Source: Escherichia coli (lineage in GTDB: Bacteria; Pseudomonadota; Gammaproteobacteria; Enterobacterales; Enterobacteriaceae). Taken from it: a stretch of DNA of 64,000 bases. A model generated the notes under the pieces. That model was not told the origin of the DNA. It saw only the letters and a list, made by a program, of their open reading frames with translations, and did no database searches. A program made the translations under genes and the position numbers. The DNA lies in assembly GCF_003334355.1 (NCBI RefSeq), contig NZ_QOWP01000006.1; one strand, written 5' to 3'. This document shows positions 1,261 through 44,103 of the stretch, piece by piece. Every line of letters starts with the position of its first letter. The stretch's first letter is position 1.

Positions 1261-1602
1261 TTACGCGACCTTTTTTGCACGCTCTTCACGGCGTGCCAAA
1301 TATTCAGCCACTGTTTCAATCCGTCCCAATTCTTCCTGGGTGCGCAGGTTGTTTTCAACTTCCCAAAGATCAACCGCCGCCTGGAGGTTTAGCCAAAAAT
1401 CGACTGTGGTATCAAAAACTTTCGCCAGACGAAATGCCATCTCAGTAGTGAGTTTACGATTGTTATTGATCAGTGCACTGACGCTATTACGATGAACATG
1501 CAGCAACTCTGCTAACTCATTGATTTTCAAATCGAGCGGTTCCAGATATTCATAGAGAAGAATATCTCCGGGTGTCGTCGGTTTTCTTGTTGCCTGTTTC
1601 AT
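1261..1602 (-). CDS. ybaQ: HTH-type regulator YbaQ (XRE/HigA antitoxin-like, no adjacent toxin gene)
   Basis: ORF 1261..1656(-); start placed at internal Met (MKQATRKPTT...) giving 113 aa; helix-turn-helix region LKINELAELLHVHRNSVSALINN typical of the XRE/HigA family. Confidence 0.8.
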   Translation of the reverse strand: MKQATRKPTTPGDILLYEYLEPLDLKINELAELLHVHRNSVSALINNNRKLTTEMAFRLAKVFDTTVDFWLNLQAAVDLWEVENNLRTQEELGRIETVAEYLARREERAKKVA

Positions 1603-25309: not shown

Positions 25310-28462
<3,153 letters not shown>

Positions 28463-28480
28463 TACAACGTGTAATCACTA

Positions 28481-28504
28481 AGGCCGCGTAAGCGGCCTTT
28501 TTTA
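28481..28504 (+). terminator. Rho-independent terminator of acrAB
   Basis: AGGCCGC-GTAA-GCGGCCT hairpin followed by TTTTTTAT immediately after the acrB stop. Confidence 0.8.
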
Positions 28505-29007
28505 TGCATAACCTACGAACATTAAGGAGTAATTGAACCACCAACTCAGGATCTCATACGAAAACCAGTATTAACCACGGATAAAATTCATAAAAAATAC
28601 TGATTGTTAGTTAATTTATATTAAGTAGCGCTAATAGATTTAATAATCCATAATCATTTAGAGGCTATTCTTAATTATTTGCGGTAATTCTTTATTCATT
28701 CCTCGGTTATTACGTCATATTCAGAGCAATCCTGGTATTAGTGTCACCAATTTCATCTGGCGATAATCCTGAAATGTTATGAATAGTTCGAGCAAACTGC
28801 TTTTACCTGCTGCGGGTTAGTGCTAGTATGAAAAAGTGAGTCCTGTCCCGCTTCCTTCCTAATTGTAATTTTTCGTAATAATGCGATGAAAACCTGCAAA
28901 GAGTGGCTTATAGTTAAGCTAACAAACGAGAGGGCAAGTCCAGGTCAGTAAGTTTTTTCCATCCCGAAAGGTGTCCGTTAGTTCAACCGCTAAGAAGGGG
29001 ACGCGTT

Positions 29008-29382
29008 ATGGATGAATACTCACCCAAAAGACATGATATCGCACAGCTTAAGTTTCTCTGTGAAACCCTGTATCATGACTGCCTTGCAAACCTTGAAGAA
29101 AGCAATCATGGCTGGGTAAACGACCCAACCTCGGCGATCAACCTCCAGTTGAATGAACTGATTGAGCATATTGCGACCTTCGCACTTAATTACAAAATTA
29201 AGTATAATGAAGACAATAAGCTCATTGAGCAGATCGACGAATATCTGGATGACACCTTTATGTTGTTCAGTAGTTATGGTATTAATATGCAGGATCTTCA
29301 GAAATGGCGGAAGTCAGGTAATCGACTATTCCGTTGTTTTGTCAATGCGACGAAAGAGAATCCTGCGAGTTTATCTTGTTAG
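29008..29382 (+). CDS. tomB: Hha toxicity modulator TomB (YbaJ)
   Basis: ORF 29008..29382(+), 124 aa; SD AAGAAGGGG upstream; directly precedes hha. Confidence 0.9.
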
Positions 29383-29407
29383 AATTATTACAACCATGGG
29401 TAGAAGT

Positions 29408-29626
29408 ATGTCCGAAAAACCTTTAACGAAAACCGATTATTTAATGCGTTTACGTCGTTGCCAGACAATTGACACGCTGGAGCGTGTTATCGAGAAAAAT
29501 AAATACGAATTATCAGATAATGAACTGGCGGTATTTTACTCAGCCGCAGATCACCGCCTCGCCGAATTGACCATGAATAAACTGTACGACAAGATCCCTT
29601 CCTCAGTTTGGAAATTTATTCGCTAA
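29408..29626 (+). CDS. hha: Haemolysin expression modulator Hha (H-NS co-regulator)
   Basis: Start ATG 29408 inside ORF 29162..29626 gives 72 aa [35 protein letters not shown]...; Hha/YmoA family. Confidence 0.93.
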
Positions 29627-29797
29627 TAAATAATTCGCTTTCGGAGCTATAACCGGCTGTTTATTAAGAATTTTATACTTTTTCGCCATGAAGACATACC
29701 CTATGTGATCTTTATCACACAGATGTAATGGGAACGTTCTCTTCACTGACTTTTCGTCTTACTGTGTTGCCGCATTTTCAGCAACCGGAGGTCAGTA

Positions 29798-30349
29798 ATG
29801 AGCACAGAAAAAGAAAAGATGATTGCTGGTGAGTTGTATCGCTCGGCAGATGAGACGTTATCTCGCGATCGCCTGCGCGCTCGTCAGCTTATTCACCGAT
29901 ACAATCATTCCCTGGCGGAAGAGCACACATTACGCCAGCAAATTCTCGCTGATCTATTCGGTCAGGTGACAGAGGCTTATATTGAGCCAACGTTTCGCTG
30001 TGACTATGGCTATAACATTTTTCTCGGTAATAATTTTTTCGCCAACTTCGATTGCGTGATGCTTGATGTCTGCCCTATTCGCATCGGTGATAACTGTATG
30101 TTGGCACCAGGCGTTCATATCTACACGGCAACACATCCCATCGACCCTGTAGCACGTAATAGCGGTGCTGAACTGGGGAAACCCGTCACCATCGGTAATA
30201 ACGTCTGGATTGGCGGACGCGCGGTCATTAACCCTGGTGTGACCATTGGTGATAACGTCGTGGTAGCCTCAGGTGCAGTTGTCACAAAAGATGTCCCGGA
30301 CAACGTTGTCGTGGGCGGTAATCCAGCCAGAATAATTAAAAAATTGTAA
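29798..30349 (+). CDS. maa: Maltose O-acetyltransferase (hexapeptide-repeat acyltransferase)
   Basis: ORF 29798..30349(+), 183 aa; left-handed beta-helix hexapeptide repeats ([39 protein letters not shown]). Confidence 0.93.
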
Positions 30350-30464
30350 TCGGTTTTTCGCAACTGTTATGCAAAATTGTGGTAGATCTGTTACTTCCCC
30401 TCTACTATTCCCACGTTAAAATAGGGTGTTCCCTGGAAAGTTGCAGATACCACGAAGGCAAACG

Positions 30465-30935
30465 ATGACCGAAATACAACGCCTGCTGACCGAAACGATT
30501 GAGTCTCTGAATACCCGCGAAAAACGCGACAACAAACCCCGCTTTAGTATCAGTTTTATCCGTAAACATCCGGGGCTGTTTATCGGTATGTACGTTGCTT
30601 TTTTTGCCACCCTGGCGGTGATGTTGCAGTCCGAAACGCTGTCAGGCTCTGTCTGGCTACTGGTTGTATTATTTATCCTGCTTAATGGTTTCTTCTTTTT
30701 CGATGTCTACCCACGCTACCGCTATGAAGATATCGACGTGCTGGATTTCCGCGTTTGCTATAACGGCGAATGGTACAACACGCGCTTTGTACCTGCCGCG
30801 CTGGTTGAAGCCATCTTGAACTCTCCGCGTGTCGCGGATGTTCATAAGGAACAACTGCAAAAAATGATCGTCCGTAAAGGTGAACTGTCTTTTTACGATA
30901 TTTTTACCCTCGCTCGCGCCGAATCAACATCTTAA
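30465..30935 (+). CDS. ylaC: Inner-membrane protein YlaC (DUF1449)
   Basis: ORF 30426..30935(+); start at MTEIQRLL giving 156 aa; two predicted TM helices. Confidence 0.82.
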
Positions 30936-31092
30936 GTTAGGGTTACATACCAGGCGTAAAGCTCTGCGCCTGGTCAAATGACAATGATCGTTTCCACCCA
31001 TCACTTCATGAAATACCAGCTCTACCTCCTTATCTCCAGCCAGCCTTTTTCCACAATCAGATATACTTTCCCTACACTGTGTTAATAAGGAT

Positions 31093-32649
31093 ATGCTGGT
31101 GAGAACACGACATCTGGTCGGCCTTATTTCGGGAGTACTGATTCTTTCAGTATTGCTGCCTGTCGGCTTAAGCATCTGGCTGGCCCATCAGCAGGTAGAA
31201 ACATCGTTTATTGAAGAGCTGGATACCTATTCCTCCCGCGTCGCTATTCGAGCCAATAAGGTGGCGACACAAGGGAAAGATGCGCTGCAGGAGCTGGAAA
31301 GATGGCAAGGCGCTGCCTGTAGCGAAGCCCATCTCATGGAAATGCGTCGGGTATCTTACAGTTATCGCTATATTCAGGAAGTGGCTTATATCGATAACAA
31401 CGTTCCCCAGTGTTCGTCTCTGGAGCATGAAAGTCCGCCCGATACCTTCCCCGAGCCAGGTAAAATTTCGAAAGATGGTTATCGTGTCTGGTTAACATCG
31501 CATAACGATTTAGGCATTATCCGTTACATGGTCGCCATGGGAACGGCACATTATGTCGTCATGATCGACCCCGCTTCCTTTATTGATGTCATTCCCTATA
31601 GCTCATGGCAAATTGATGCCGCCATTATTGGCAATGCCCATAACGTTGTCATAACCAGCAGCGATGAAATTGCTCAGGGAATTATTACCAGGCTACAAAA
31701 AACACCCGGTGAGCATATCGAAAATAATGGAATCATTTACGATATCCTGCCCTTACCGGAGATGAATATTTCGATCATCACATGGGCTTCAACGAAAATG
31801 TTGCAGAAAGGCTGGCATCGGCAAGTCTTTATTTGGTTACCGCTCGGGTTGGTGATTGGCCTGCTGGCAGCGATGTTTGTGCTGCGTATTTTGCGCCGTA
31901 TTCAGTCACCGCATCATCGGCTGCAGGATGCTATCGAAAATCGTGATATTTGCGTGCACTATCAGCCGATTGTCTCCTTAGCCAATGGCAAAATTGTCGG
32001 TGCTGAGGCACTGGCGCGCTGGCCGCAGACAGACGGTAGTTGGTTGTCACCAGATAGTTTTATTCCGCTGGCACAGCAAACGGGCCTTTCTGAGCCATTG
32101 ACGCTACTGATTATAAGAAGCGTCTTTGAAGATATGGGCGACTGGCTGCGTCAGCATCCACAGCAGCATATTTCGATCAATCTTGAATCCCCCGTGCTCA
32201 CCTCGGAAAAAATCCCGCAATTGCTGCGTGACATGATCAATCACTATCAGGTTAATCCCAGACAGATCGCGCTTGAACTCACTGAACGCGAGTTTGCCGA
32301 TCCGAAAACCAGCGCCCCGATAATTTCTCGCTACCGGGAGGCGGGCCATGAAATTTATCTTGATGATTTTGGTACGGGGTATTCAAGTTTAAGTTATTTA
32401 CAGGATCTGGATGTCGACATTCTGAAGATCGATAAATCTTTCGTTGATGCGCTGGAATATAAAAATGTCACGCCGCATATCATCGAAATGGCAAAAACAC
32501 TGAAACTGAAAATGGTAGCGGAGGGAATCGAAACCAGTAAACAAGAAGAGTGGTTACGCCAGCATGGCGTGCACTACGGTCAGGGCTGGCTCTACAGCAA
32601 GGCATTACCGAAAGAAGATTTCTTACGCTGGGCCGAGCAACATTTGTGA
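31093..32649 (+). CDS. pdeB: c-di-GMP phosphodiesterase PdeB (YlaB), CSS-motif sensor + EAL domain
   Basis: ORF 31093..32649(+), 518 aa; two TM segments flanking a periplasmic domain, C-terminal EAL motifs (EALARW, DDFGTGYSSL); start may be the GTG two codons downstream. Confidence 0.88.
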   Translation: MLVRTRHLVGLISGVLILSVLLPVGLSIWLAHQQVETSFIEELDTYSSRVAIRANKVATQGKDALQELERWQGAACSEAHLMEMRRVSYSYRYIQEVAYIDNNVPQCSSLEHESPPDTFPEPGKISKDGYRVWLTSHNDLGIIRYMVAMGTAHYVVMIDPASFIDVIPYSSWQIDAAIIGNAHNVVITSSDEIAQGIITRLQKTPGEHIENNGIIYDILPLPEMNISIITWASTKMLQKGWHRQVFIWLPLGLVIGLLAAMFVLRILRRIQSPHHRLQDAIENRDICVHYQPIVSLANGKIVGAEALARWPQTDGSWLSPDSFIPLAQQTGLSEPLTLLIIRSVFEDMGDWLRQHPQQHISINLESPVLTSEKIPQLLRDMINHYQVNPRQIALELTEREFADPKTSAPIISRYREAGHEIYLDDFGTGYSSLSYLQDLDVDILKIDKSFVDALEYKNVTPHIIEMAKTLKLKMVAEGIETSKQEEWLRQHGVHYGQGWLYSKALPKEDFLRWAEQHL

Positions 32650-32690
32650 ATTTTTGGGCTGACGGCACGCCGCACAGCCCGTCACGCTAC

Positions 32691-33044
32691 CTATTCGTCG
32701 ATGATTGACTCGAATCCGCCATAGATCATTCGCTTGCCGTCAAACGGCATGGACTCGCCGAACTCTTTCATCCGTGGGTCCGACATCATCTTTTGATTAG
32801 CAGCGTCGCGGACCTCTTTTGAAGGGTATTCAATCCAGCTAAAGACAACCTCTTCATTCTCTTCCGCTTTCACCGCCATACGAAAATCGGTCACTTTGCC
32901 ATCCGGTACATCGCTGGCCCAGCATTCGACAATACGAAGCGCGCCAAACTCTTTAAACAATGGCGCAGCCTTAGCGGCCATTTCCCGATAGGCATCCTTT
33001 TTATCGGCAGGAACGGCAACCACAAAACCATCAACATACTTCAT
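32691..33044 (-). CDS. ybaA: DUF1428-family protein YbaA
   Basis: ORF 32691..33044(-), 117 aa; recognised YbaA sequence. Confidence 0.85.
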   Translation of the reverse strand: MKYVDGFVVAVPADKKDAYREMAAKAAPLFKEFGALRIVECWASDVPDGKVTDFRMAVKAEENEEVVFSWIEYPSKEVRDAANQKMMSDPRMKEFGESMPFDGKRMIYGGFESIIDE

Positions 33045-33154: not shown

Positions 33155-33268
33155 GGGTGGGGGCCCTGCCAGCTACATCCCGGCACACGCGTCATCTGCC
33201 TTGGCTGCTTCCTTCCGGACCTGACCTGGTAAACAGAGTAGCGTTGCGGGAGAACCAACAGAGCCCCC
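33155..33268 (-). ncRNA. ffs: 4.5S RNA (signal recognition particle RNA)
   Basis: Minus strand reads GGGGGCTCTGTTGGTTCTCCCGCAACGCTACTCTGTTTACCAGGTCAGGTCCGGAAGGAAGCAGCCAAGGCAGATGACGCGTGTGCCGGGATGTAGCTGGCAGGGCCCCCACCC, the canonical 114 nt E. coli ffs, including the conserved domain IV GGAA tetraloop region. Confidence 0.95.
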
Positions 33269-41484: not shown

Positions 41485-42303
41485 TTATTCGGGGGAATAA
41501 GGTAGATGTGGATAGTCCAGCCAGTGCGTCAAATAGTGAGAGACAGCCTGATTTCGGCAATGTCCAATCACCGGTAAATGCGGGAGCTCCGCGCGCAGTT
41601 GCGGCATCGCATTGCCCATAATAAACCCGCTACCGACGCTGCCTAACATTTCGCGATCGTTCATCGCATCACCAAAGGCCATGCAATCGCGCAACGATAA
41701 ACCTAAATGTTGGGTCAGCACCGTCAATGCAGCGCCTTTATTGCAGCCCACCGGCAGCACTTCGAGGCAATCCGTGGCGGAAAAACACAAATGTGCACGC
41801 TCGCCTAATGCTTCGTATAGCTGGATCTGCAAGCGTGTAAGATCGTCGTGATCGCCACAGAAGCAGATCTTGGTGACACTGCCGAGTGGCATTTTTTTGA
41901 CATCGATTATCTGATAACGAAAACCGCTATAGACAAATGCCTGCAACAACGCAGGGATCTCTTTCCCGGTAAACCAACCGTCGTCATTGAAGATATGCAT
42001 GCTGGCTCGGGTATCCCATTGCTGATACAGCACCAGCTCCGCGACATCCGCAGGTAAATCATCACGATGTAAAAGTTCACCTTCCAGAGAATGCACGCGC
42101 GTTCCGTTGCCGGTAATCAAATATGCATCCAGCGATAGCGCCCCGAGAATATGCTGCATCTCCAGCGCATGACGCCCCGTGGCAAAAGTGAGGGTAATGT
42201 CGCGTTCACGCAGTCGCGCCAAAGTAGAGAGGGTTTTCTCACCTAAATGATGGTCAGGCATCAATAAAGTGCCATCCATATCAAATGCTGCCAGACGAGC
42301 CAT
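41485..42303 (-). CDS. cof: HAD-family HMP-PP phosphatase Cof
   Basis: Start at [14 protein letters not shown] inside ORF 41485..42315(-) gives 272 aa; HAD motif I DMDGTLL. Confidence 0.92.
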
Positions 42304-42402
42304 TTCTTTCTCCACTCTGTGACACGGTTAATGGTGATTGAGTATCACCTGATATATACGGAAGTAATAGTGAATAGTGAAATAATATTGTTCCGGGTTT
42401 AT

Positions 42403-44103
42403 ATGCGATTGCTCAACCGTCTTAACCAGTATCAACGTCTGTGGCAACCTTCAGCCGGAAAGCCGCAAACCGTCACCGTCAGCGAACTGGCCGAACGCTG
42501 TTTTTGCAGCGAACGCCATGTTCGTACGCTGTTGCGTCAGGCACAGGAGGCGGGATGGCTGGAGTGGCAGGCGCAGTCAGGACGCGGAAAGCGCGGACAA
42601 TTACGCTTTCTGGTCACGCCGGAATCGCTACGCAATGCGATGATGGAACAGGCACTGGAAACCGGAAAGCAGCAAGATGTGCTGGAGCTGGCGCAACTGG
42701 CCCCAGGTGAGCTGCGCACTCTGTTACAGCCGTTTATGGGCGGACAATGGCAAAACGATACACCCACGTTGCGTATTCCCTACTATCGCCCGCTCGAACC
42801 GCTACAACCAGGCTTTTTGCCCGGCCGTGCCGAGCAGCATCTCGCCGGGCAGATATTTTCCGGCCTGACCCGCTTCGATAATAATACTCAGCGCCCGATT
42901 GGCGATTTAGCGCATCACTGGGAAACCTCTACTGACGGGTTACGCTGGGACTTTTATCTTCGTTCAACCCTACACTGGCATAACGGCGATGCAGTAAAAG
43001 CCTCACACTTACACCAGCGATTATTGATGCTGTTACAACTGCCAGCACTGGATCAATTATTTATTAGCGTGAAGCGTATTGAAGTCACCCATCCGCAGTG
43101 TCTGACCTTCTTTTTACATCGCCCCGATTACTGGCTTGCGCACCGGCTGGCGAGCTATTGCAGCCATCTGGTGCATCCGCAATTCCCACTGATCGGCACT
43201 GGTCCTTTTCGCTTAACACAATTCACAGCGGAGCTGGTGCGCCTGGAGAGCCATGATTATTACCATTTGCGTCATCCGCTGCTTAAAGCGGTTGAGTACT
43301 GGATAACTCCGCCGCTTTTCGAAAAAGATTTGGGAACCAGTTGTCGGCATCCCGTGCAAATCACCATCGGCAAACCGGAGGAGCTGCAACGGGTCAGCCA
43401 GGTCAGTAGTGGCATCAGTTTAGGTTTTTGCTATTTAACGTTGCGCAAAAGTCCCCGACTCTCCCTCTGGCAGGCGCGAAAAGTGATCTCCATTATTCAT
43501 CAATCCGGTTTATTACAAACGTTAGAAGTCGGAGAAAACCTGATCACCGCCAGTCATGCATTACTGCCAGGCTGGACTATTCCGCACTGGCAAGTACCGG
43601 ATGAAGTCAAACTACCGAAAACCTTGACGCTGGTTTATCACCTACCGATAGAACTTCATACCATGGCAGAACGCCTACAGGCGACACTGTCAGCGGAAGG
43701 CTGTGAACTCACAATTATTTTTCATAACGCAAAAAACTGGGACGACACGACCCTACTGGCACACGCAGACCTCATGATGGGCGACAGATTAATTGGCGAA
43801 GCACCGGAATATACTCTGGAGCAATGGCTACGTTGCGATCCACTGTGGCCACATGTTTTCGACGCTCCAGCATATGCACATCTGCAATCGACGCTGGACG
43901 CGGTGCAAGTAATGCCTGATGAGGAAAACCGATTTAATGCCCTGAAAGCGGTTTTTAGCCAGTTAATGGCAGACGCGACGCTGACGCCGCTGTTCAACTA
44001 TCACTATCGCATTAGTGCCCCTCCCGGCGTGAACGGTGTGCGACTGACACCGCGCGGCTGGTTTGAATTTACCGAAGCCTGGCTTCCCGCGCCGTCGCAA
44101 TGA
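42403..44103 (+). CDS. ybaE: Uncharacterised protein YbaE (SgrR-like N-terminal domain fused to solute-binding-protein family 5 domain)
   Basis: Start at MRLLNRLNQYQRLWQ inside ORF 42319..44103(+) gives 566 aa; recognised as YbaE; domain assignment from memory of the family. Confidence 0.8.
   Translation: MRLLNRLNQYQRLWQPSAGKPQTVTVSELAERCFCSERHVRTLLRQAQEAGWLEWQAQSGRGKRGQLRFLVTPESLRNAMMEQALETGKQQDVLELAQLAPGELRTLLQPFMGGQWQNDTPTLRIPYYRPLEPLQPGFLPGRAEQHLAGQIFSGLTRFDNNTQRPIGDLAHHWETSTDGLRWDFYLRSTLHWHNGDAVKASHLHQRLLMLLQLPALDQLFISVKRIEVTHPQCLTFFLHRPDYWLAHRLASYCSHLVHPQFPLIGTGPFRLTQFTAELVRLESHDYYHLRHPLLKAVEYWITPPLFEKDLGTSCRHPVQITIGKPEELQRVSQVSSGISLGFCYLTLRKSPRLSLWQARKVISIIHQSGLLQTLEVGENLITASHALLPGWTIPHWQVPDEVKLPKTLTLVYHLPIELHTMAERLQATLSAEGCELTIIFHNAKNWDDTTLLAHADLMMGDRLIGEAPEYTLEQWLRCDPLWPHVFDAPAYAHLQSTLDAVQVMPDEENRFNALKAVFSQLMADATLTPLFNYHYRISAPPGVNGVRLTPRGWFEFTEAWLPAPSQ

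Follow-up and report, generated by a model that had tools for sequence, protein, structure and literature searches.

The tomB-hha pair between acrAB and ffs in Escherichia coli: inheritance, base composition and the toxin-antitoxin reading

The closest described systems are the Hha/TomB (YmoA/YmoB) pairs of E. coli, Salmonella and Yersinia. Hha binds H-NS and helps to silence horizontally acquired AT-rich genes, and Hha-like proteins are limited to enterobacteria (PMC2686267). Binding of Hha-family proteins to H-NS is seen in the structures of the complexes 2MW2 and 4ICG, and Asp48 of Hha was reported to be essential for this interaction (PMC4519777). An excess of Hha is toxic, TomB (YbaJ) attenuates this toxicity, and Hha represses the ybaJ-hha promoter (PMC2408971); this 2008 paper already argued from the organisation in one operon, the 25-bp gap and the small size of the two proteins. 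TomB was also reported to be labile (PMC2408971, PMC5133643). Another study found that TomB and YmoB need oxygen to act, that they contact Hha transiently and promote the oxidation of its single conserved cysteine, and that this oxidation destabilises Hha (PMC5155140). In current reviews, hha-tomB is the founding type VII system (PMC8610362).

According to the published mechanism, Hha would bind the N-terminal domain of H-NS, leading to stronger silencing of AT-rich DNA by H-NS, and over-produced Hha may cause slower growth or cell lysis. TomB, encoded on the same transcript as hha, would transiently contact Hha and lead to air oxidation of Cys18. The resulting sulfenic, sulfinic or sulfonic acid would destabilise Hha, and TomB would thus be an oxygen-dependent 'antitoxin' of type VII. 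The toxin-antitoxin label for tomB-hha is soft and contested in the literature. In Salmonella grown in ordinary media, neither deletion of tomB nor over-expression of hha caused toxicity (PMC5133643). The same report described a stable Hha-TomB complex, whereas only transient contact was seen in the NMR study (PMC5155140).

The DNA analysed here, referred to as the window, is a stretch of 64,000 nucleotides of the E. coli chromosome that reaches from copA to cyoE, and its gene annotation was mapped over the whole length from strain MLI023K1. The following features are of relevance:

28463-29007, plus strand: intergenic region between acrB and tomB, regulatory region of the tomB-hha operon (545 bp, GC 0.378)
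28480-28507, plus strand: intrinsic terminator of acrB, a GC hairpin with a T run (terminator scan)
28860-28916, plus strand: promoter block, AATTGTAATTTTTCGTAAT, followed by a -35-like ATGAAA at 28886-28891 and a -10-like TATAGT at 28909-28914
29008-29382, plus strand: tomB (ybaJ), Hha toxicity modulator of 124 aa (NCBIfam NF007948)
29383-29407, plus strand: tomB-hha spacer of 25 bp, holding the ribosome-binding region of hha
29408-29626, plus strand: hha, H-NS-binding co-repressor ('toxin') of 72 aa (NCBIfam NF008191)
29705-29720, no strand assigned: perfect CRP-type palindrome, TGTGATCTTTATCACA, about 90 bp upstream of maa
29798-30349, plus strand: maa, maltose O-acetyltransferase (NCBIfam NF007499, 396 bits)
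30465-30935, plus strand: ylaC, membrane protein (annotation)
31099-32649, plus strand: pdeB (ylaB), c-di-GMP phosphodiesterase (annotation and EAL-family matches)
32691-33044, minus strand: ybaA, downstream neighbour
33164-33260, minus strand: ffs, 4.5S/SRP RNA (Rfam RF00169, 68 bits)

Proteins of the TomB family share a four-helix-bundle fold with a channel leading to a buried cysteine. The best explanation of the locus, which we regard as very probable, is that it represents the chromosomal tomB-hha operon of E. coli, already well studied. A previous reading of the window, made from its letters and open reading frames (the sequence-only reading), had described a TomB of 124 aa followed 25 bp later by an Hha of 72 aa, and its coordinates, sizes and spacing were exact. 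TomB matched NF007948 over the full length (234 bits at a cut-off of 108; residues 1-121, profile of 122 positions) and showed sequence similarity to the YmoB structure 2MN2 over residues 1-112 (E = 2e-50), and all TomB homologues had a precomputed PF10757 assignment. Among 13 genera compared, Cys18 of TomB was invariant and a stretch of 19 residues in the N-terminal helix was nearly so. Hha was likewise matched at full length by NF008191 (169 bits, cut-off 90; residues 1-72 of 72) and by PDB entry 1JW2 (E = 1e-44, residues 1-72), with 2MW2 and 4ICG as other solved homologues, and its translation reads Cys at residue 18 and Asp at residue 48.

No sequence difference from the published Hha/TomB system was seen, with the 25-bp spacing, Cys18 of Hha and Cys18 of TomB all present, and the pair in the window is that system. 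Of the traits of a type VII pair, adjacency and co-transcription of the two genes are found here (25-bp gap, no terminator-like site between them in the terminator scan, operon according to PMC2408971), and Hha carries the cysteine that would be modified, Cys18. The earlier description of a toxin-antitoxin-like pair is correct but not new, as it matches what was published before (PMC2408971, PMC5155140, PMC5133643, PMC8610362). A caveat to co-transcription is a promoter-like site within tomB (29179-29208, promoter scan), a candidate internal hha promoter; genomic SELEX with sigma-S holoenzyme gave peaks in the acrB-tomB spacer and inside tomB (PMC5493296). Within the Hha/YmoA family (PF05321), which includes Cnu/YdgT and the Hha proteins of conjugative plasmids, the fold is common and Asp48 is kept in the Hha of the window. 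Unlike hha in the window, Cnu and the plasmid-borne Hha copies have no TomB partner. As the genes, the structures, the connection with H-NS silencing and the toxin-antitoxin interpretation have all been published, little is left for discovery. From 28400 to 32750 (tomB-hha-pdeB), the window is 100% identical to E. coli ATCC 8739, which is another strain: there is an offset of 104 bp before 11.8 kb, and the window is without the IS1-flanked polysaccharide cluster.

Together with maa, ylaC and pdeB, the pair had been proposed to form a compositionally distinct block within a low-GC segment. The segment itself is real and no chance fluctuation within the window: between acrB and ybaA (28463-32690), GC is 0.450 versus 0.516 ± 0.020 for 4.2-kb windows, the lowest of all such stretches, with no non-overlapping window as low. 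tomB (0.405) and hha (0.406) have the two lowest GC contents of 55 complete annotated CDSs analysed (z about -4). GC3, which had been suggested as a check, also differed, being 0.45-0.535 for the five genes (tomB 0.46, hha 0.45) compared with 0.575 ± 0.065 for the others (Mann-Whitney p = 0.0009). A compositional difference, the absence of which would have spoken against the sequence-only reading, thus exists. The distinctness of the block held for raw GC and GC3 but not at four-fold sites, where tomB and hha together reached 0.515 versus 0.656 in the rest of the window (Fisher p = 0.02), whereas pooled maa, ylaC and pdeB (0.616) did not differ from it (p = 0.12) and ylaC and pdeB lay at the window mean (z about 0.07). 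The codon-usage comparison, also suggested before, was run with a synonymous codon 'typicality' score derived from the window and did not separate the five-gene block (p = 0.067). Over the 1.3 kb that comprise the acrB-tomB spacer, tomB, hha and the hha-maa spacer, GC is 0.391, against 0.475 from maa to pdeB. Much of the deficit of tomB and hha sits at codon positions 1 and 2 (GC1 0.44-0.46, GC2 0.29-0.33) and hence in the amino-acid composition.

A similar picture was obtained across species. GC of tomB and hha was 0.38-0.46 in nearly all of 88 loci, the GC of which ranged from 0.33 to 0.59, and fell to 0.28-0.37 only in the lineages with lowest GC (Proteus, Providencia and one unplaced 1.5-kb contig). 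At four-fold sites, the two genes had a lower GC than acrAB, taken as background, in 73 of 73 loci (mean difference -0.154, slope 0.66 against background). The phylogenetic relatedness of the loci weakens this count, but since dS is saturated between genera, their synonymous compositions are largely independent of each other. By contrast, maa (+0.014), ylaC (+0.062) and pdeB (+0.041) were at or above background and followed host GC, the slopes being 1.1-1.25. In the 400 bp preceding tomB, GC was 0.35-0.42 throughout the Enterobacteriaceae, in which locus GC is 0.43-0.58. Thus only tomB, hha and about 0.5 kb upstream are persistently AT-rich, whatever the GC of the genome. With dN/dS values of 0.00-0.03, both genes are among the most constrained in the neighbourhood; between genera, their synonymous sites have reached saturation, and their dS is no smaller than that of the neighbouring genes. 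As AT-richness persists in every lineage despite this saturation, it looks like a maintained property rather than an unameliorated relic of acquisition. This persistent synonymous AT-richness of tomB-hha across Enterobacterales is mildly new, and it implies that island callers based on composition would wrongly flag a core locus.

Why AT-richness should be maintained can be read in two ways. We infer that it may be kept so that the locus stays a target of H-NS and Hha, giving negative feedback, which would fit the published auto-repression by Hha and the resemblance to the hns and stpA loci. In E. coli K-12, hns and stpA have upstream regions of 604 and 668 bp with a GC of 0.40 and 0.34 and GC3 values of 0.40 and 0.46, respectively, and share with tomB-hha a long AT-rich upstream region and low GC3. 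They differ from it in encoding unrelated proteins and in being single genes without a modulator partner. The hha paralogue cnu, in turn, is not AT-rich at synonymous sites and does not have the architecture of hns and stpA, which counts against feedback. In the literature searched, no report of H-NS binding at the tomB-hha locus and no description of such a feedback was found. It is therefore only tentatively suggested that tomB, hha and the leader of about 0.5 kb might be actively kept AT-rich, even at four-fold sites, so that the locus permanently 'looks foreign' and is throttled by the H-NS/Hha complex to which it contributes Hha, a feedback encoded in base composition.

The other reading, possible but doubtful in our view, sees AT-richness as a by-product of proteins rich in Asn, Lys, Ile, Tyr, Asp and Glu, combined with weak codon selection in small, weakly expressed genes, and gives it no regulatory meaning. 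The low GC1 and GC2 of tomB and hha agree with it, as does the codon typicality score, which was not significantly different, and the unreduced dS means that no extra constraint at the nucleotide level is visible. The small regulator gene acrR was also below background at four-fold sites in nearly all loci. However, the deficit of acrR is only about half that of tomB-hha, for which the slope against host GC is damped (0.66 versus about 1.0), and the four-fold sites at which tomB-hha is deficient in all 73 loci are independent of amino-acid choice. The genes maa, ylaC and pdeB, presumably weakly expressed as well, are at or above background, and the low GC of the upstream 400 bp concerns DNA that is non-coding.

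Returning to the tomB-hha operon as a core locus, its distribution bears on whether the pair could be a classical selfish addiction-type toxin-antitoxin cassette, mobile in nature and chromosomal by chance. Of 5426 complete E. coli genomes, 5425 contain the 4.35-kb region, nearly always as one copy. The TomB family is narrow: 5.8 billion proteins clustered at 90% identity gave 297 TomB clusters, and 1.84 billion proteins reduced at 50% identity gave 43 representatives, many of which are fragments. A TomB relative with the N-terminal motif is encoded in 303 of 100,044 species genomes. Named members are almost all from Enterobacterales; two are labelled otherwise (Pseudomonas cerasi and Martelella alba). 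The most divergent TomB proteins, with 37-45% identity, occur in Proteus, Morganella and Providencia, and a homologue search started from Proteus TomB gave matches in Proteus only. Every locus examined had an Hha-family gene directly downstream of tomB, with a gap of 23-30 bp across Enterobacteriaceae.

An origin as a mobile cassette would account for the two small, adjacent and co-oriented genes 25 bp apart, and it fits the published observations that excess Hha is toxic and relieved by TomB, that TomB is labile and that the promoter is auto-repressed (PMC2408971, PMC5133643). It is nevertheless highly improbable, since nearly every E. coli genome has the pair, in a single copy, and since the pair holds a fixed position across Enterobacterales and is subject to purifying selection that ranks among the strongest in this neighbourhood. 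PADLOC gave no match for it, and deletion of tomB is tolerated (PMC5133643). TomB was found on 14 of 72,556 'plasmid' records, most of which are Mb-sized or mislabelled chromosomes, whereas relatives of Hha occur without TomB on at least 5000 plasmids (3882 of them conjugative). The distribution of tomB-hha is thus not the patchy, multi-copy or mobile-element one of addiction modules, and Hha, as its plasmid copies show, is not always accompanied by the cognate antitoxin. That TomB is confined to chromosomes while Hha is on thousands of plasmids argues against a typical addiction module; the absence of TomB from plasmids carrying Hha is another mildly new point.

Classical type II toxin-antitoxin systems (MazEF, RelBE and HigBA) resemble tomB-hha as small auto-repressed two-gene operons that are toxic if over-expressed. 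Unlike type II toxins, Hha is not an enzyme toxin, and the NMR study saw no stable complex that would neutralise it; unlike the patchy and mobile type II cassettes, tomB-hha is distributed vertically and order-wide. A gene of the HigA family, ybaQ, is present elsewhere in the window (1261-1602).

The surroundings of the pair were compared across families. The order acrR-acrA-acrB-tomB-hha-(maa)-ylaC was found in all of the best 80 Enterobacteriaceae loci with enough flanking sequence. Five families of Enterobacterales have tomB-hha beside acrAB. Proteus and Morganella share the order mscK-acrR-acrAB-tomB-hha-tesB-amtB-glnK-mdlBA, and a relative with a reduced genome has dnaX-apt-priC-acrRAB-tomB-hha-ybaY-tesB. 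Erwinia, Yersinia, Serratia and Dickeya carry rpmE2-rpmJ2, with or without a znu-like transporter, between acrAB and tomB-hha, and in Erwinia, Yersinia and Dickeya, but not Serratia, atl-ybaY-tesB-amtB follow after hha. In Providencia, mltD instead of acrAB lies upstream of the pair, while ffs, ybaY, tesB, amtB, glnK and mdlBA are still downstream. All seven loci scanned outside Enterobacteriaceae had ffs downstream of hha and on the opposite strand, at a distance of only 51 bp in Erwinia. It follows hha directly in Erwinia, Dickeya, Proteus, Morganella, Providencia and the reduced-genome relative; in Yersinia, an unrelated amidohydrolase gene lies between the two. The position of ffs beside hha outside Enterobacteriaceae points to acrB, tomB, hha, ffs (on the opposite strand), atl, ybaY, tesB as the ancestral order. 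tomB-hha is thus a single-copy core locus that has been passed on vertically in Enterobacterales and has kept its site between acrAB and ffs/tesB.

The downstream genes have a different history. None of maa, ylaC and pdeB was found in the loci of Morganellaceae, Erwiniaceae, Yersiniaceae and Pectobacteriaceae or in the reduced-genome relative. Among the loci compared, ylaC was restricted to Enterobacteriaceae, and among the best 80 Enterobacteriaceae loci, maa was missing in Trabulsiella, Leclercia and two Citrobacter species. pdeB was present in Escherichia, Citrobacter, Salmonella, Enterobacter and Lelliottia, whereas Klebsiella, Raoultella, Kosakonia, Kluyvera and Phytobacter had no pdeB within 10 kb. 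The genes maa, ylaC, (pdeB) and ybaA were inserted later into the hha-ffs gap of Enterobacteriaceae and vary with the lineage, and maa, ylaC and pdeB do not belong to the tomB-hha pair. The view of the hha-ffs gap as a recurrent insertion site is again mildly new. The insertion point adjoins a small RNA gene, ffs. The cyo genes had wrongly been taken for the other flank of the block; they are at 58105-62900, 25 kb away, and the downstream neighbours are ybaA and ffs.

The CRP-type site upstream of maa (TGTGA-N6-TCACA) has kept its half-sites, with the central six bases varying, in 40 of 71 species. Judged from its sequence, it would mark maa as a separate transcription unit with its own promoter.

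That tomB, hha, maa, ylaC and pdeB were acquired horizontally as one island, with low GC as the relic of a foreign origin, is hardly tenable: the stretch does have the lowest raw GC of its size and each of the five genes has a GC and a GC3 lower than the window mean, but the genes do not travel together (four families have tomB-hha without maa, ylaC and pdeB, and pdeB and maa come and go within Enterobacteriaceae), the atypical composition is not common to the whole block at four-fold sites, where maa, ylaC and pdeB track host GC, a search around the block for integrase, transposase and tRNA genes and for bounding repeats returned only short repeats at chance level, and maa has its own conserved CRP-type site. 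The phylogenetic distribution, proposed before as a check, showed that the five genes are not present or absent as a unit, and the suggestion of a single ancient acquisition has to be replaced, as tomB-hha is ancestral to Enterobacterales at this site whereas maa, ylaC and pdeB are later and variable. Low GC is therefore no sign of a five-gene island here; the region is made up of a regulatory pair ancestral to the whole order and of genes inserted later between hha and ffs.

The leader upstream of tomB is long. acrB ends at 28462, and its terminator hairpin is kept in 15 genera. Between acrB and tomB lie 435-560 bp in each of the Enterobacteriaceae examined, while Proteus and Morganella have 582-660 bp there. 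The promoter block was nearly invariant in an alignment of 15 genera, and its -35/-10 pair, 17 bp apart, was also found by the promoter scan. A direct repeat in this block, GTAAT-N5-GTAAT, was considered as a CpxR box and rejected, as it occurs once in the window where chance alone predicts 0.96 matches; no paper supporting CpxR at this block was found, and the repeat is retained as a conserved element. A possible anti-Shine-Dalgarno helix would pair CAUCCC (28960-28965) with GGGAUG at the ribosome-binding site, but the helix is partly broken in E. coli. The pairs of this leader helix are invariant, so there is no covariation, and the fold energy was not better than that of shuffled sequences (z = 0.17). 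No Rfam family matched in the tomB leader.

An open reading frame of 154 aa (29162-29626), in the frame of hha and extending over the 3' half of tomB, was considered as an overlapping gene or programmed fusion and rejected as a product of chance. An open stretch of 82 codons in this frame is limited to the window and two close Escherichia relatives; in most genera the frame stays open over just three codons. Together with single-base deletions, this open frame explains the TomB-Hha fusion proteins of 205 aa found in databases.

The intergenic and coding sequence around tomB and hha holds the following features between acrB and maa.

28861-28879: 19-bp element AATTGTAATTTTTCGTAAT, immediately 5' of the tomB -35 hexamer, invariant in an alignment across 15 genera
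29008-29382, + strand: tomB
29179-29208: promoter-like site inside tomB (TTCGCA, 18 bp, TATAAT; 10 of 12 matches)
29408-29626, + strand: hha
29705-29720: TGTGATCTTTATCACA, a perfect palindrome of the CRP consensus type, some 90 bp ahead of maa, seen in the sequence

CRP-type half-sites upstream of maa were kept in 40 of 71 Enterobacteriaceae species, with six variable bases in the centre. Conserved half-sites around a variable centre are the signature of a functional CRP site, here a predicted one, before maa.

A peak for sigma-S was mapped within tomB by SELEX (PMC5493296). As the promoter-like site also lies inside this gene, hha is possibly transcribed apart from tomB as well, and the candidate internal promoter may be the origin of such independent transcription. 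The reading frame of hha additionally extends upstream, with 82 open codons preceding its start and overlapping tomB (29162-29626); conservation of this open upstream frame was not seen outside Escherichia. Because the hha frame is open through the overlap, single-base deletions in tomB give 205-aa TomB-Hha fusions, and proteins of this kind were found as rare database entries with differing deletion points in tomB.

Upstream of tomB, the invariant 19-bp element includes a GTAAT-N5-GTAAT direct repeat, which resembles a CpxR box in appearance. Matches to the CpxR-box-like motif within the window were no more frequent than expected by chance, and a literature search for CpxR control at this element found no supporting paper. 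In the tomB leader, a candidate anti-Shine-Dalgarno pairing was identified between CAUCCC (28960-28965) and GGGAUG (28998-29003). The candidate pairs are conserved, covariation is absent, and E. coli has one mismatch; the stability of the leader fold with this pairing was not above that of shuffled sequences.

Comparison of E. coli with E. albertii (window 29408-32649 versus the E. albertii comparison locus L007) gave dS values of 0.7-1.3 for hha, maa, ylaC, pdeB, ybaA, and tesB, and of 0.35-0.46 for acrRAB, tomB, atl, ybaY, and amtB. The higher dS of the first group could come from a stretch that evolves faster locally, from recombinational exchange of that stretch, or just from weaker codon bias. 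The cargo found between hha and the 4.5S RNA gene ffs differs by family, namely maa-ylaC-pdeB-ybaA in Enterobacteriaceae and an amidohydrolase gene in Yersinia (L090 10463-11824). In Erwinia, Yersinia, and Serratia, the gap between acrB and tomB holds rpmE2-rpmJ2 and a znu-like transporter (loci L088-L092).

Farther from tomB-hha, an antitoxin gene was annotated for which the window annotation lists no adjoining toxin gene.

1261-1602: ybaQ, HigA-family antitoxin by annotation, GC 0.450 and GC3 0.43, both low

Between copA and ybaQ (1103-1239), the window has one copy of a 101-bp unit and lacks the tandem array of about seven copies present in strain ATCC 8739 (L001 393-1034). At the cof-ybaE junction (42303-42403), the window strain is without the IS1-flanked polysaccharide synthesis gene cluster of about 17 kb that ATCC 8739 carries there (L002 8084-26118). 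In two very large database proteins, P0154 with 1178 aa and P0161 with 1632 aa, a segment weakly matching TomB residues 39-90 recurs four to five times in each, with E-values of 3e-6 and 2e-4, respectively.
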